Assembly (NCBI GenBank): GCA_004356685.1
Contig: SMWS01000042.1
Coordinates: 1-32,774, forward strand
DNA from: Deltaproteobacteria bacterium
Lineage (GTDB): Bacteria > Desulfobacterota_D > UBA1144 > Nemesobacterales > N074bin48
DNA length: 32,774 nucleotides
Direction of reading: 5' to 3'
The notes under the pieces were generated by a model. That model was not told the origin of the DNA. It worked only from the letters and a program-made list of their open reading frames with translations, and did not search any database. Below are positions 1 to 4,994 of the stretch, piece by piece. Position 1 is the stretch's first letter, and each line of letters opens with the position of its first letter. Both the position numbers and the translations under genes were made by a program.

Positions 1-50
1 ATGGATTTCTGATTTAACATTTATTTAGAATAATTGGTTATATATAATTA

Positions 51-182
51 TTATTTCACCCCAACCTTCATACACAAATCTTCAATCTTACATATATCAC
101 ATTTTGGTCCGATTGGTTTACAAATATTCTGACCATAGGCTACAAGAAGTGAATTAGTATCAATCTTGTATTTTATTGGAAG
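51..182 (-). pseudogene. Orphan 3' fragment of an endonuclease III (nth) gene: last 43 codons plus stop, with no upstream coding continuation
   Basis: Minus-strand translation is LPIKYKIDTNSLLVAYGQNICKPIGPKCDICKIEDLCMKVGVK*. It aligns without gaps to the C-terminus of the intact nth at 877..1533 (LPKRYWIDINSLLVAYGQNICKPIGPKCDICKIEDMCMKVGVKQ*). Nt 54..182 versus 883..1011 match at 116 of 129 positions by my hand count. Homology stops abruptly beyond about 182. Confidence 0.8.
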
Positions 183-266
183 ATTTATATCAGCTATCTT
201 CTTTATAATAAATAATACTAATTAATAGAAAAGAATTCTTATTATAACTAATCTAACATGGAGAAC

Positions 267-713
267 TTATTCTATTTCTTCAAGAACTTGTGCATCAATA
301 ATATCTCTGTCACGACCAGTAGATTTTTTATTCTTTATTAAATTACTCTTTGAAATAAAAGGAAGTATTAATCCATCTAGTTTTATATCTTGTTTGCTTT
401 CATATGCATCGGTAAAATTAATACCATCAATATCTGTTAGAATATCAATCCTACTTGGAGCAACTCCTATCTGAAATACAATATTTTTCTGAGAAAAGGT
501 TTTCGGGGTTATATTATCAAGTGGAGCTCCAAAGTCAGACAAAGCTTTGTATAATTTATCAGAGTTTTCTTCAGTATTACCAATCCATATATCAAAATCA
601 CCTGTTGCTCTTGGGTAGCCGTATGCTGCCATAGCATATGCGCCTACAATAAGGAATCTTACCTCATTTCTTAATAAGCTTTGCAACATCTCTTTGTAGT
701 CTTTGTTCAACAT
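267..713 (-). CDS. Minimal nucleotidyltransferase-fold protein (MNT/DUF6036-like), possible toxin-antitoxin-type module component
   Basis: 148 aa ORF. The N-terminal pattern VRFLIVGAYAMAAYGYPRATGDFDIWI (G-x-A..G..R.T.D.D) is typical of small pol-beta-superfamily nucleotidyltransferases. It overlaps the upstream small ORF by 50 nt in a different frame. Confidence 0.6.
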   Translation of the reverse strand: MLNKDYKEMLQSLLRNEVRFLIVGAYAMAAYGYPRATGDFDIWIGNTEENSDKLYKALSDFGAPLDNITPKTFSQKNIVFQIGVAPSRIDILTDIDGINFTDAYESKQDIKLDGLILPFISKSNLIKNKKSTGRDRDIIDAQVLEEIE

Positions 714-852
714 TTTTTCTTTCTTTGAAATACCAGGCTTCTTTTGTCAGTTCCCACACCATAGATATCCTCTCCTGAGGAGAAGCATCCACAAAACCAT
801 CATCCTTATCACTCAGTTTTTTAAGAGTTACTATATCTCTATTTACCTTCAT
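664..852 (-). CDS. Small (62 aa) partner protein of the nucleotidyltransferase-fold gene; function unknown
   Basis: ORF directly upstream of the NTase-fold ORF and overlapping it. Its C-terminal ..EQRLQRDVAKLIKK resembles small proteins I recall as commonly paired with such NTases; this is from memory and unverified. There is no SD, and a perfect extended -10 lies 6 nt upstream of the ATG. Confidence 0.45.
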   Translation of the reverse strand: MKVNRDIVTLKKLSDKDDGFVDASPQERISMVWELTKEAWYFKERKNVEQRLQRDVAKLIKK

Positions 853-858
853 ACATTA

Positions 859-867
859 ATTATATCA
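859..867 (-). promoter_or_regulatory. Extended -10 promoter element TGATATAAT (minus strand), predicting a leaderless transcript for the 62-aa ORF
   Basis: The reverse complement of 859..867 reads TGATATAAT. Only 6 nt (TAATGT) separate the hexamer from the ATG at 852, so the predicted TSS falls on or next to the A of the ATG. No SD is present. The element sits in the 24-nt gap after the nth stop. Confidence 0.45.
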
Positions 868-876
868 CAGATATAG

Positions 877-1533
877 CTATTGTTTCACCCCAACCTTCAT
901 ACACATATCTTCAATTTTACATATATCACATTTTGGGCCGATTGGTTTACAAATATTTTGACCATAAGCTACAAGCAGTGAATTAATATCTATCCAGTAC
1001 CTTTTTGGAAGTTTTTTTCTTAGTTCCATCTCACTGTCATCAGGAGCTTTTGTTTTTATGTATCCAAAACGGTTAAAAATTCTGTGCACATGAGTATCAA
1101 CGCATATTCCGGGTTTGTTATAGCCAAGTGTAATAACCAGGTTAGCAGTTTTGCGCCCTACTCCTTTTAATTTCAACAGCTCATCCAGATCGTCAGGAAC
1201 CTTTGAATCATAATTTTCAACCAGTTCCTTAGATATATTCTTTATCGTTTTTGCCTTAACCCTGTAAAATCCAGCCGGGTACAGCACTTTTTCAATTTGA
1301 GGGATTTTTAACTTAAGCATATCTCCCGGATTAGATGCAAGCTTGAAGAGCCTGTTAGAAGCATCTGCTGTTGTGCTGTCTTTTGTCCGAAGGCTAATAA
1401 TCGTAGAAATCAGCACGCGGAAAGGCTCTCTTTTTCTTTCGGCATCAACGGTTACAAAAGGAGTTTTAAATCTTTTATACTCTTTTTTTACGATTTTAAC
1501 TATTTCTTTAATATTTATATCTTCCATTACCAA
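877..1533 (-). CDS. nth: Endonuclease III (DNA-(apurinic or apyrimidinic site) lyase)
   Basis: 218 aa. HhH-GPD region (LLKLKGVGRKTANLV, CVDTHVHRI) and a C-terminal 4Fe-4S loop C-x6-C-x2-C-x5-C (CKPIGPKCDICKIEDMC). Confidence 0.9.
   Translation of the reverse strand: MVMEDINIKEIVKIVKKEYKRFKTPFVTVDAERKREPFRVLISTIISLRTKDSTTADASNRLFKLASNPGDMLKLKIPQIEKVLYPAGFYRVKAKTIKNISKELVENYDSKVPDDLDELLKLKGVGRKTANLVITLGYNKPGICVDTHVHRIFNRFGYIKTKAPDDSEMELRKKLPKRYWIDINSLLVAYGQNICKPIGPKCDICKIEDMCMKVGVKQ
883..1011. repeat. Direct-repeat partner of 54..182 (the 3' end of the intact nth)
   Basis: Gapless alignment to 54..182 with 13 mismatches in 129 nt by hand count. The two copies are in the same orientation and bracket the two-gene cassette at 267..852. 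Confidence 0.8.
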
Positions 1534-2842: not shown

Positions 2843-3796
2843 ATGAGAAGAAAATTTCCGATATTTGATGGCCACCAGGATATTGCTTTTCACCTGAGTT
2901 ATTTTAGGCGAGACTTTGTTGCGCCAGAAATTCCCTGCATGATAACCCTTCCCGGACTAAAAAAGGGTAATATAAAATTCATATTAAATACAATATTTGT
3001 TCATCCTAAATTAAGACCTGAAAAAACAGTTGAGAACGCTAATCTACAATTTCAGGTTTATGAGGACATTTATACAGAGTTTGGCTCTGAAATTATGAAA
3101 ATTGAAGACAAAAAAGACCTGGATACCGCAATTAATGATAACAAGATTGGTTTTATCACTTTGATGGAAGGCGCAGACCCAATTGAACAGCCAGATGATT
3201 TGTATAAATATTACAATAAAGGTTTAAGAGTGCTGGGGCTGGCCTGGAATAACAAAAATGAATATGCTTCGGGCCCGGCAACCAAAGATGGTTTATCCGA
3301 AAAAGGAAAGGAAATAATTCAAATTATGAATGAATTAAATATAACTCTGGACCTTTCACACTTAAATGAAAAATGTTTTTGGCAAAGTCTAGAATCTTAT
3401 AATCATACCCCACTGGCAACTCATTCAAATGTAAGGAAATTAACAGATCATCCAAGAAACCTGTACGACGAACAGTTAAAAGAAATCTCAAAGCGTGGCG
3501 GCGTAATAGGTATAGTTCTTTATAACAATTTTCTTAAAACTACTGACGACCGGCCAACTTTAGAAGATATTTATAAACATATTGATTATATGCTTAATCT
3601 TTGCGGTGAAGACCACGTAGGAATAGGGAGCGATCTGGATGGCGCTGAGATAAAAGACTTTCCAAAAGAAATAAGGACAATCGCTAATTTACAGAAAATC
3701 CCTGAATATCTATCTAAAAAAGGTTACTCTGATGATCTTGTTAAAAAAATCTCGCATGACAATTTTCTCAGAGTTATAAGATACAATCTAAATTAG
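2843..3796 (+). CDS. Membrane dipeptidase, peptidase family M19 (renal dipeptidase-like)
   Basis: Motifs FDGHQD, DLSHLNE, ATHSN and GIGSDLDG. I prefer the ATG at 2843, 1 nt after the upstream stop codon (2839..2841), over the track start at 2807. The homologous region begins at MRRKFPIFDGHQD, and 2807 would add an unmatched 12-aa extension overlapping the upstream gene. Confidence 0.8.
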   Translation: MRRKFPIFDGHQDIAFHLSYFRRDFVAPEIPCMITLPGLKKGNIKFILNTIFVHPKLRPEKTVENANLQFQVYEDIYTEFGSEIMKIEDKKDLDTAINDNKIGFITLMEGADPIEQPDDLYKYYNKGLRVLGLAWNNKNEYASGPATKDGLSEKGKEIIQIMNELNITLDLSHLNEKCFWQSLESYNHTPLATHSNVRKLTDHPRNLYDEQLKEISKRGGVIGIVLYNNFLKTTDDRPTLEDIYKHIDYMLNLCGEDHVGIGSDLDGAEIKDFPKEIRTIANLQKIPEYLSKKGYSDDLVKKISHDNFLRVIRYNLN

Positions 3797-3824
3797 AAAG
3801 CCCGAAGCACATACTCCGGGCTTT
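3797..3824 (+). terminator. Possible stem-loop terminator after the dipeptidase gene
   Basis: AAAGCCCG (3797..3804) pairs with CGGGCTTT (3817..3824) around a 12-nt loop. The trailing T-tract is short (TTT then A), so this is a weak intrinsic terminator at best. Confidence 0.35.
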
Positions 3825-3956
3825 ATAGGGGAGGATGGAAATTAATAAACCATTCATCTTTATCTCTTATATATACTTTTAGATAATGATCGATTATAAA
3901 AGATTCAAATTAGCTTTTATATTATTTCTTGAATGTTTCTAGTAAAATAACAAATC

Positions 3957-4994
3957 ATGAAAATTAAAATCGGAATCTTGGGAGCAACAGGATATACAGG
4001 GGCTGAACTGCTGAGATTATTAGTAGGTCATCCCCATGCAGAAATTAAATGGCTAACATCAGAGAAATTTGCAAATAAGAAAATTTCTGAAGTTTTCCCG
4101 ACATTAAGAAATTTCATTGATCTTGAATGTAAATCTATAAGAGAAATAAACAAATTTAAAAATGTGGACGTAGTTTTTTCTTGCTTACCGCATGGAAGCT
4201 CTATGCATTTTGCTAAATTATTTTTGGATAAAGGCACGAAGTTTATAGATTTCAGTGCCGATTTTAGGTTTACAAATTTAAGCCTATACAACAAGCTTTA
4301 TAAGTTAAATCATATAAACCCTGAATTAAATAAAAAATCAGCATACGGCCTGCCTGAATTATTCAGGAAGAAGATAAAAAAATCAGAATTGATATCAAAT
4401 CCCGGATGTTATGCGACTGCTGCAATTTTAGGTTTAGCACCTTTGATTAAAAATAATCTAATAGATGCAAAATTTATCAATATTGATGCCAAAGCAGGAC
4501 TTTCAGGAGGCGGGAGAGCCCCAGTTAGTGAAAGGCAATTTTCTGAAGCTAACGATACAATTTCTATAAATTCAATCTCAAATCACAATCAAAAACCAGA
4601 AATTGAAGAACAACTCAGTATTCTATACAAAGCTAAATCAAAATTAGTTTTCTCAACATATAATATAAATATAGACAGGGGAATACTAACAACGATTACA
4701 GCAAAGCTGAAAAACTCCATATCGAAAAGTGAATTATTAGCAAAATATAAGAATTTTTATAAAAATGAAAATTTCATCAGATTAATTGATGATGAAAAAA
4801 ACATATCTACTAAAAATGTGCGATTTACAAATTACTGCGATATTGGAGTAAACATTCAAAACAGACATATTGTTTGTGTAACTGCCTTAGATAATTTAGG
4901 CAAAGGAGCTTCGGGACAAGCTGTGCAAAATATGAATATAATATTTAATCTAGAAGAGTCCGATGGCTTACAAAATACAGGGTTATATCCGTAA
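3957..4994 (+). CDS. argC: N-acetyl-gamma-glutamyl-phosphate reductase
   Basis: 345 aa. N-terminal GILGATGYTGAELLRLL..HP, active-site PGCYATA, and C-terminal DNLGKGASGQAVQNMN signature. Confidence 0.9.
   Translation: MKIKIGILGATGYTGAELLRLLVGHPHAEIKWLTSEKFANKKISEVFPTLRNFIDLECKSIREINKFKNVDVVFSCLPHGSSMHFAKLFLDKGTKFIDFSADFRFTNLSLYNKLYKLNHINPELNKKSAYGLPELFRKKIKKSELISNPGCYATAAILGLAPLIKNNLIDAKFINIDAKAGLSGGGRAPVSERQFSEANDTISINSISNHNQKPEIEEQLSILYKAKSKLVFSTYNINIDRGILTTITAKLKNSISKSELLAKYKNFYKNENFIRLIDDEKNISTKNVRFTNYCDIGVNIQNRHIVCVTALDNLGKGASGQAVQNMNIIFNLEESDGLQNTGLYP

Follow-up and report, generated by a model that had tools for sequence, protein, structure and literature searches.

Orphan or displaced 3′ gene fragments within Rhs, CDI and T6SS effector-immunity arrays have been attributed to homology-facilitated illegitimate recombination (HFIR) (Kirchberger et al. 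2017, PMC5361080; PMC3240628). The locus described here lies at the start of a 32,774-nt stretch of DNA (the window; contig SMWS01000042.1 of assembly GCA_004356685.1) and holds a structure of this already known kind behind nth, the gene for endonuclease III. Read along the minus strand, on which all its parts within the window are encoded, its order is nth ending in the right copy (R) of a repeated nth tail, a two-gene cassette, the left copy (L) of that tail, and a gene designated X, i.e. an HFIR-type orphan fragment between modules. As in the Rhs and T6SS arrays, a conserved upstream gene forms the homology anchor and a new module adjoins it, followed by a same-orientation, 5′-truncated fragment of the anchor's 3′ end and then by an older module; both lack an integrase and occur as mosaic alleles. 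Unlike those arrays, the anchor is a housekeeping repair gene rather than a polymorphic toxin gene, the modules are mutually unrelated (a toxin-antitoxin-like pair and a secreted HEAT-repeat protein), and there is a single displaced fragment, with the single-module nth–X allele not observed.

The locus also invites comparison with islands and prophages that integrate into the 3′ ends of tRNA, tmRNA and protein-coding genes by means of tyrosine or serine integrases. In both, foreign DNA lies between direct repeats of the 3′ end of a gene that is left intact. Unlike att-type islands, however, the nth locus lacks an integrase, other carriers of the cassette do not have the repeat, and the empty site places the insertion after the stop codon. 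Moreover, the 145-nt repeat is diverged by 12% and ragged at its 5′ edge, whereas att-type islands feature a short exact core.

The nth tail repeat

A repeat search of the window reported one dominant direct repeat, in which positions 42–186 (L) match positions 871–1015 (R) over 145 nt, gaplessly and with 88% identity, leaving 17 differing positions; the source genome as assembled contains just these two copies. For the span compared in an earlier note on this DNA (54–182 against 883–1011), a recount gave 13 mismatches in 129 nt, exactly its figure. Its descriptions of a left copy in frame through the Fe-S loop to a stop codon with no nth body upstream, and of intervening DNA holding a 62-aa ORF, an NTase-fold ORF, a promoter-like site and nothing else, were borne out likewise.

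The intact gene (877–1533) is identified as nth by Pfam HhH-GPD (3.1e-23) and HHH and by TIGR01083 (nth, 1.9e-53). Its homologues, which carry the names endonuclease III and Candidatus Dadabacteria, begin at MEDINIKE, corresponding to window position 1527. R comprises the functional 3′ end of this 216/218-aa ORF plus 6 nt after its stop codon. Together with the HhH-GPD domain, the protein features the C-terminal 4Fe-4S loop of endonuclease III (C-X6-C-X2-C-X5-C), which is encoded in R and also in L. The latter is a 5′-truncated, non-coding fragment that comprises the last ~44 nth codons, the stop codon and ~10 nt past it; on the minus strand it reads ...NLPIKYKIDTNSLLVAYGQNICKPIGPKCDICKIEDLCMKVGVK and then two stops, in frame through the loop, with no canonical start codon.

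The window opens at base 1 of its contig, 41 nt from the repeat, and the source MAG is incomplete (74.5% complete, 163 contigs), which would favour an assembly artefact or a chimeric contig end. However, the overlapping part of the same 1100 nt recurs with 99.9–100% identity in at least nine independent metagenome contigs (L031–L036, L038–L040), drawn from JGI, ENA and NCBI and differing in sample and assembler. Both repeat copies are present wherever these contigs extend that far, and the contigs continue further left; in a tenth (L037), the match runs up to the stop codon of the left copy. Because nine independent assemblies agree across both copies and beyond, and because 17 differences between the copies preclude collapsed k-mer overlaps, the chance of an artefact is negligible. 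The nth tail repeat is neither a chance match nor a product of assembly.

A toxin-antitoxin-like cassette beside nth

The ~650-nt cassette is an acquired insert beside the nth 3′ end. Its first gene, the 62-aa ORF (664–852), is putatively the antitoxin-like partner of the NTase gene on the grounds of conserved pairing: of 42 loci from at least 10 phyla, 41 have a homologue directly upstream of the NTase homologue, and the two genes overlap there by the same ~47 nt. Searches of Pfam, NCBIfam and PADLOC gave no match to it. The second gene (267–713) is predicted, from modeled structure and motif, to encode a minimal NTase-fold protein of 148 aa that is TM1012/MenT1-like and toxin-like. Its AF2 model (pLDDT 89) finds its best Foldseek matches in TM1012 (E 2.5e-4) and in MenT1 within the MenAT1 complex (8an5_B, TMq 0.67), and its profile matches 8an4 weakly (E 0.039). 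We found 3143 homologues; residues T37, G38, D39 and D41 are invariant among homologues, and the motif aligns with the MenT1 stretch PRFTRDVD. In Pfam, no AbiEii/DUF1814-type family matched even at E values up to 10, the only match being to DUF2204 below the cut-off (E 0.023); PADLOC and NCBIfam likewise gave none. A promoter-like site (859–888; GTGAAA-18-TGnTATAAT, 10 of 12 consensus positions) precedes the cassette, and its −35 hexamer sits in the last nth codons, inside R.

Taken alone, the cassette is best compared with MenAT1 (Rv0078B/Rv0078A) and TM1012 (PMC10435456, PMC11375011; PDB 8an5, 2ewr). It shares with them a small upstream gene paired with an NTase-fold protein of ~150–190 aa, the fold itself (Foldseek probability 1.0, TMq 0.64–0.67) and a patchy spread across phyla; with MenAT1 it also shares an invariant T-x-D-x-D that aligns to the phospho-acceptor T39 and the catalytic D41 of MenT1. 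Unlike MenAT1, its NTase is shorter (148 aa), has no significant sequence membership in AbiEii/DUF1814-type families and keeps the conserved 47-nt out-of-frame gene overlap, and its toxin-like role is suggested by fold and motif. These data describe a widely transferred, putative toxin-antitoxin-like module that is present in at least 10 phyla.

Insertion site and alleles of relatives

An empty site was sought and found in a close relative (L108, nth 91% identical in amino acids) that has nth, 135 nt and nuoJ. Most order-level relatives examined show the same nth–nuoJ adjacency, with a spacer of ~120–180 nt. The boundaries of the cassette fall between L108 positions 3193 and 3204, at 5 nt and 16 nt beyond the stop codon of nth; the insertion point thus lies outside nth, and the L108-type site shows neither a duplication nor a replacement 3′ end. 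At the same site, the cassette occurs without the left copy in L050, L044, L041–L043 and the same-genus genome G001. These alleles show that the ancestral state was nth, ~135 nt and nuoJ, and that the cassette was inserted ~5 nt past the nth stop without duplication, a form that persists in several lineages. The earlier note's small cassette at the nth 3′ end was accordingly right as to an acquired insert, and misplaced in that the insert lands beyond the stop codon.

The nth–nuoJ spacer is an insertion hot spot across the Dadabacteria-like order, with cargo that differs by lineage and at least five different cargos in all. In L104 the gene directly behind nth is GDSL-like, and other families have an SDR or small ORFs there; among the relatives inspected, all of these other inserts lack the tail repeat. 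Between contigs of the source type (G000) and L050, identity is 98.8% in the cassette ORFs, whereas nth differs by ~8% and the spacer following the NTase gene by still more; the locus is a mosaic. This spacer (195–266 in the window) is common to G000 and the cassette alleles that lack L: homology to L044 and L050 extends from the cassette to ...AAGAAGATA (window 203–195) and ends there.

The left copy belongs to a strain-specific block

L occurs only at the upstream edge of a strain-specific block of 1.31 kb, of which the window contains positions 1–194 and which spans ~3237–4530 in L033. The block comprises L, ~20 nt, gene X, a truncated ORF (Y′) and 118 nt, and is carried by G000-type contigs, L051, L046, L047 and L111. 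In L044, L050, L041 and G001, ~50 nt of NTase–nuoJ spacer stand in its place. The no-block alleles and the empty site have AGTTCAARNCTTATARCC in common, and since this is missing from the block allele, the block is the derived state. These comparisons show that it was added downstream of the cassette in the G000-type lineage, replacing ~50 nt of spacer.

The first codons of X (MLNQKS...) occupy window positions 1–20, where the gene runs off the contig end. The complete gene, which is present in L038 and which an indel splits in L033, encodes a secreted HEAT-repeat protein of 273 aa with a signal peptide (HEAT_2, 8.8e-6, just under the Pfam cut-off). L is fused to X via the same short spacer in L033, L051, L046 and L047. 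The right-hand sequence of the block is common to L111 and L047, and L111 reaches the same right junction. In L055, X–Y follows unrelated genes, with homology starting 6 nt before the X ATG; X has a separate origin. Neither the ~20-nt linker between L and X nor the 118 nt that follow Y′ could be traced to a source, and the block is therefore made up of at least three pieces. Where it meets the NTase spacer, at window 194/195 (AAGAAGATA against GCTGATAT), the sequence is AT-rich and no clear microhomology can be defined. A transposon or MITE-type block was rejected, as terminal inverted repeats and target duplication are both absent.

L copies form a single clade (UFBoot 96). Among the tails compared, the R of G000 is the closest to L (14 of 133 positions mismatched, against 17–26 for the others), which suggests descent from an nth of the same genus; its placement among the genus tails, in a tree built on 133 nt, has supports of 16–34. 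Within the 3′ 113 nt, the L–R differences comprise six synonymous, two non-synonymous and one nonsense change, as expected if both were functional nth for most of their divergence. Moreover, L carries the states CTT, GCC and CAG (and AGT in L051 and L046), which match other tails of the genus, e.g. L108, and not the G000 R. The first ~32 nt differ in character: 8 of 32 positions mismatch, against 9 of 113 in the remainder, a conserved Trp is lost, and the stretch is far more diverged from every nth than the rest of L is. The longest exact runs between L and R (20–23 nt) lie inside the coding part, the edges are ragged (at the 5′ end the divergence is 25%), and the junction at which L starts is a one-off.

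L has no coding function. Although in the same frame as the NTase ORF, it is separated from it by two stops and lacks a start codon, which rejects a translated ORF or NTase extension. In other strains, L differs by non-synonymous changes (K>N, D>G, G>A), a pattern that fits neutral decay. No tRNA, ncRNA or terminator role was found for L, nor any Rfam match. A decayed second nth paralogue was likewise rejected, in agreement with the earlier note: upstream of L stands the spacer found behind the NTase gene in L-less alleles, with no remnants of an nth body. Gene conversion from L to R as the basis of their similarity found no specific support, since the divergence of the G000 R tail from L050 does not exceed that of the remaining gene.

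Origin of the displaced nth tail

The left copy is best described as a dead nth fragment at the join of two accessory inserts that lie one behind the other in a single hot spot, the short stretch from the nth stop codon to the nuoJ promoter; it arrived later than the cassette and together with the neighbouring gene, as an ordinary recombination scar. On balance, we favour an origin in which two crossovers, one homologous and the other illegitimate, joined an nth–cassette allele to an nth–X allele and left a 5′-truncated nth tail. X would once have stood directly behind nth in an alternative allele, nth–X–nuoJ, an arrangement that L104 shows for its GDSL-like gene. One homologous crossover, within nth or nuoJ as a flank common to both alleles, would have been accompanied by an illegitimate join of the post-NTase spacer to position −145 of the other allele's nth, the process being HFIR. 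Since a join that keeps both inserts must bring a piece of the second nth, L would be that piece. In one version, an nth–X recipient would have gained the cassette through the nth homology anchor, and L would be a displaced native fragment, as the earlier note proposed, although displaced by general recombination and not by a site-specific element. As a remaining patch of nth homology, L could anchor later exchanges, of which L037 looks like one: this contig is identical to L up to GGTGAAATA, then continues with L104-type post-stop sequence and a different, M16-like gene, a switch that fits a crossover inside L.

The postulated parent would be a full-length nth running directly into TAATAATTATATATAACCAATTATTCTAAATAAATG-X (a TAATAATTATATATAACC...ATG-X junction) with no cassette. 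Exact-pattern scans of metagenome and genome contigs for it gave known contigs or nothing, and it is absent from the contexts of all five X clusters and the closest nth clusters; the contigs with diverged X variants (L046, L047) break off inside the nth tail. Single-module alleles are represented by the cassette-only and empty forms, and the nth–GDSL arrangement of L104 shows that the nth–cargo type of allele exists.

The higher divergence of the first ~32 nt of L is not predicted by a simple crossover, and the composite make-up of the block also fits a one-step repair by template switching. On that account, a break in the NTase–nuoJ spacer would have been filled by copying first 145 nt of the nth tail, which lies 0.8 kb away, and next ~1.1 kb of X–Y from another locus or incoming DNA, and no nth–X allele would ever have existed. 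The patchwork of at least three segments with short linkers (~20 nt and 118 nt), the proximity of L to the resident R tail, the different native context of X–Y in L055 and the failure of the contig scans to yield an nth–X allele all speak for it. However, a 12% difference between L and R that is mostly synonymous in the 3′ part is easier to derive from another functional nth allele, the states that L shares with other genus tails are not those of the resident R, and this hot spot normally holds its cargo directly behind nth. We therefore consider single-step repair unlikely, though credible. That L is closest to the resident R would also suit a pair of unrelated events, in which the nth tail was duplicated locally to a place downstream of the cassette and X–Y′ was later inserted beside it by chance; yet no allele has L without a following insert or X without L, L037 has a different gene after L, and both edges of the 1.31-kb block behave as a single indel against the no-block alleles, all of which makes such a coincidence improbable.

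The reading put forward in the earlier note, in which the repeat is the integration scar of a site-specific element that carried a replacement 3′ end, displaced the native tail as L and later lost its integrase, has the exact bracketing of the cassette by direct repeats in its favour, as well as the cassette's acquisition and wide transfer and the largely synonymous L–R differences. Nevertheless, the same-site cassettes described above lack the repeat (L050, L044, L041–L043, G001), the empty site in L108 shows no replacement 3′ end and an insertion 5 nt past the stop, and both physical linkage and phylogeny tie L to the X block. No integrase was found among the ORFs between and around the repeats (the 62-aa ORF, NTase, X, nuoJKL), nor any tRNA or shared att core, none being evident at 182/183 or 1011/1012 where the repeat edges are ragged; the other inserts at the hot spot, moreover, all lack a tail repeat. 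We thus give very little credence to a site-specific element, while sharing that note's view of the left copy as a scar of recombination instead of a recent tandem duplication. A further history, in which nth–X was ancestral, the cassette was inserted once at the base of the genus and L with X was lost repeatedly, was rejected, because the block allele is missing spacer sequence found in both the no-block alleles and the empty site, and because L nests among the genus tails.

Going beyond the joining of two hot-spot alleles, it is possible, though we lean against it, that the last ~145 nt of nth constitute a reusable homology landing pad, at which this Dadabacteria lineage would repeatedly capture and stack accessory modules, every one of them anchored through nth homology, with L as a second pad at which downstream cargo is swapped; a radical version would have a recombinase in trans recognising the nth tail. 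The cargo found at L is X in most strains and the M16-like gene in L037. Were the landing-pad reading true, the locus would represent a housekeeping-gene-anchored counterpart of the Rhs/T6SS orphan arrays.

Implications

The nth tail changes no major concept. It does illustrate how a population of relatives can overturn a plausible reading of a single genome, and that a bracketing repeat need not be the footprint of the cassette between its copies. Moreover, the widespread, uncharacterised MenT1/TM1012-like module is now placed in a clear before-and-after insertion context, which is useful for toxin-antitoxin tests. For the uncultured Dadabacteria-like lineage itself, these data document that the DNA directly behind a conserved repair gene is a small hot spot for insertions, at which one displaced gene tail records the combining of two cargos without a dedicated recombinase.

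The nth 3' end is repeated around a two-gene cassette

The source genome is a 1.5-Mb metagenome-assembled genome (MAG) that is 74.5% complete; the window comprises bases 1-32774 of one of its contigs (C117), and the names of close homologues point to Candidatus Dadabacteria / Thermodesulfobacteriota. A repeat search of the window returned a single outstanding direct repeat, 42-186 vs. 871-1015 (145 nt, gapless, 88% identical), in which the 13 differences in 129 nt counted by the earlier note (54-182 vs. 883-1011) were recounted as exactly 13 mismatches. The right copy belongs to an intact minus-strand endonuclease III gene (nth, 877-1527/1533) with HhH-GPD, HHH and TIGR01083 matches, of which it forms the 3' end. 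The left copy, also on the minus strand, reads NLPIKYKIDTNSLLVAYGQNICKPIGPKCDICKIEDLCMKVGVK followed by two stop symbols. As the earlier note described, it runs in frame through the Fe-S loop to a stop codon at its end and has no nth body upstream; the four cysteines are kept, and a start codon is lacking. Between the copies lie, again as described, a 62-aa ORF (664-852, minus strand), a 148-aa nucleotidyltransferase (NTase)-fold ORF (267-713, minus strand) and a promoter-like site. The best candidate for the latter (859-888, minus strand) has its -35 hexamer inside the last nth codons and a TG-extended -10 box 7 nt upstream of the 62-aa ORF ATG, a spacing compatible with a leaderless transcript.

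Because the window starts just 41 nt to the left of the left copy, the repeat was checked as a possible artefact. Nine independent metagenome contigs (JGI, ENA, NCBI) match this 1100-nt region, as far as each covers it, at 99.9-100% identity, carry both copies wherever they reach them, and extend further left than the window; a tenth, L037, matches up to the stop codon of the left copy. The direct repeat is therefore real.

The cassette encodes a putative toxin-antitoxin pair

The 62-aa ORF is the upstream partner of the NTase gene and overlaps it by 50 nt at 664-713. The same arrangement and out-of-frame overlap (about 47-50 nt) recur in 41 of the 42 loci compared (L056-L097), from at least 10 phyla, and so long a conserved overlap points to obligatory translational coupling, or to a constraint of some other kind. 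Homologues of the 148-aa protein number 3143 and share 50-69% identity with it across Nitrospirota, Omnitrophota, Planctomycetota, Desulfobacterota and other phyla; most genomes of its own order lack it. Sequence libraries gave a sub-threshold DUF2204 match alone; by structure, TM1012 and MenT1, the toxin of the MenAT1 complex, match its AlphaFold model (pLDDT 89). The invariant T37-G-D39-F-D41 (family pattern T-G-D-x-D) lines up with MenT1 T39, the phospho-acceptor, and D41, the catalytic residue (PMC11375011). The shared motif is a hint that the antitoxin may induce auto-phosphorylation, as in MenAT1; the cassette would plausibly act as a MenAT-type nucleotidyltransferase toxin-antitoxin pair.

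The cassette occupies an insertion hot spot behind nth

The adjacency of nth and nuoJ is conserved across the order, usually with a spacer of 120-180 nt. Directly behind nth there is nothing in most relatives, including the L108 locus; the cassette in the source genome's allele (G000 type), the same-genus genome G001 and loci L041-43, L044 and L050; a 392-aa GDSL-like gene in L104 and L105; and, in other families, an SDR gene or small ORFs (one or two). The other inserts at this spot have no tail repeat. The nth-nuoJ spacer is an order-wide insertion hot spot. Its inserts differ by family, as an SDR gene, small-ORF pairs or opposite-strand ORFs (L004, L005, L007, L006, L019, L021).

An empty-site allele, which the earlier note had proposed to look for, was found in L108, whose nth (91% aa) is the nearest among lineages other than the G000 type: nth, 135 nt, nuoJ. 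Aligned to it, the ~650-nt cassette maps between L108 positions 3193 and 3204 and replaces ~10 nt. The proposal that the cassette entered at the nth 3' end thus holds for an acquired insert adjoining nth, and falls short in that the insertion lies 5 nt past the stop codon and made no duplication. The cassette occupies the same site without the left copy in G001 (NTase 76% aa), L041-43 (84%), L044 (93%) and L050 (97%), with 110-195 nt between the NTase gene and nuoJ. These relatives show cassette and left copy to be separate events.

The left copy belongs to a strain-specific block

The contigs that extend further left show, to the left of the repeat, a minus-strand gene X (MLNQKS...; 273 aa, signal peptide, HEAT-like repeats) that begins at window position 20 and runs out of the window. 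Some strains have X intact; in others a short indel splits it into 173 + 84 aa (L033 3412-4231 vs. L038 3573-4394). This heterogeneity is probably why the MAG contig does not reach beyond window base 1. Beyond X lie ~300 nt with a 44-aa signal-peptide ORF fragment (Y'), then nuoJ-nuoK-nuoL. The G000-type allele carries a 1.31-kb block (contig L033, ~3237-4530) that replaces ~50 nt of the no-block alleles and begins with the left copy (145 nt), followed by ~20 nt, X-Y' and, before the nuoJ promoter region, a further 118 nt. The no-block alleles can be aligned as far as ...AAGAAGATA (window 203-195); homology to nth begins at most 8 nt from there. In this genus the nth tail, with the same spacer, precedes every X found (L033, L051, L046, L047). 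The right-hand sequence of the block is common to L111 and L047, the former of which extends to the same right junction. L051 and L050 encode an identical NTase protein, with the block present in the former and absent from the latter, a within-population polymorphism. The spacer motif AGTTCAARNCTTATARCC occurs both in the no-block alleles and at the empty site but not in the block allele, so the block is the derived state.

The sole other X-Y context found is L055, where 7 nt separate X from an unrelated 536-aa gene in front of it, accompanied by a 1161-aa RTX/Ig-like protein. L055 is homologous to the G000 block from 6 nt before the X ATG to ~100 nt into Y. Within L055 1-5146, the larger protein exceeds 1161 aa and combines RTX-like GGxGxD with Ig-like repeats, the 536-aa protein has no Pfam match, and the region may be a secreted adhesin locus.

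The locus is a recombination mosaic

The left copies (G000 type, L037, L051) form one clade (UFBoot 96), whose placement among genus nth tails is unsettled on 133 nt. Over that length the left copy is nearest to the right copy of G000 (14 mismatches), followed by L050 (17), L104 (20), L108 and L041 (22 each) and G001 (26). Of the differences between left and right copies in the 3' 113 nt, 6 are synonymous, 2 non-synonymous and 1 nonsense, as would fit two functional nth alleles diverging; the changes accumulated in the left copy of L051 (K>N, D>G, D>S, G>A) look, by contrast, like neutral decay. The first 32 nt of the left copy are unusually diverged (8/32 mismatches, conserved Trp lost).

The locus is a recombination mosaic. 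Between the G000 type and L050 the cassette ORFs share 98.8% identity, amid nth genes ~8% diverged and a post-NTase spacer diverged still more; the cassette has therefore passed between strains at a later time than its surroundings. The high identity is seen at L033 2587-3155. L037 does not differ from the G000 type across cassette and left copy as far as GGTGAAATA, then continues with GTTTATGTTATTT, the post-stop sequence of an L104-type nth, and an M16-peptidase-like gene instead of X. At L037 4938-5236 the switch falls exactly at the stop codon of the left copy, the 13 nt after it match the sequence downstream of the L104-type nth, and the different gene is represented by an M16-peptidase-like N-terminus. 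The simplest reading is a crossover inside the left copy with an incoming allele carrying nth and then another gene.

Stacked inserts may account for the orphan nth tail

The aligned alleles show the order of events: first the empty site, next the cassette inserted past the stop codon, and last the block with the left copy, added downstream. The earlier note's site-specific integration scar is without support, as the cassette occupies the same site without the left copy in four lineages and the left copy is part of the block, in which a search found no integrase, tRNA, terminal inverted repeats or Rfam match. Its idea of a recombination scar adjoining the nth 3' end was right. We lean slightly towards homology-facilitated illegitimate recombination as the process that combined cassette and X alleles. 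An alternative allele would once have had X directly behind nth; one homologous crossover, in nth or nuoJ, would have joined it to the cassette allele, and a second, illegitimate join would have linked the post-NTase spacer to position -145 of the other allele's nth. A recombinant keeping both inserts must then carry part of the second nth, and the fragment would therefore be an nth tail that seems to bracket the cassette. Were the recipient the X allele, the left copy would be the displaced native tail, as the earlier note supposed; were it the cassette allele, the left copy would have been brought in with donor DNA. The main rival, one-step patchwork repair in which the nearby nth tail was copied as filler, strikes us as rather unlikely; in its favour, pattern scans of metagenome and genome contigs and the X contexts yielded no parental nth-X allele.

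Homology-facilitated illegitimate recombination is described for natural transformation and conjugation (PMC3240628); it is also a proposed origin of the displaced 3' fragments in T6SS and Rhs arrays (PMC5361080), which the orphan nth 3' fragment resembles. The left copy adds a further example to a known type of scar, the orphan 3' fragment that remains when inserts stack at a hot spot.
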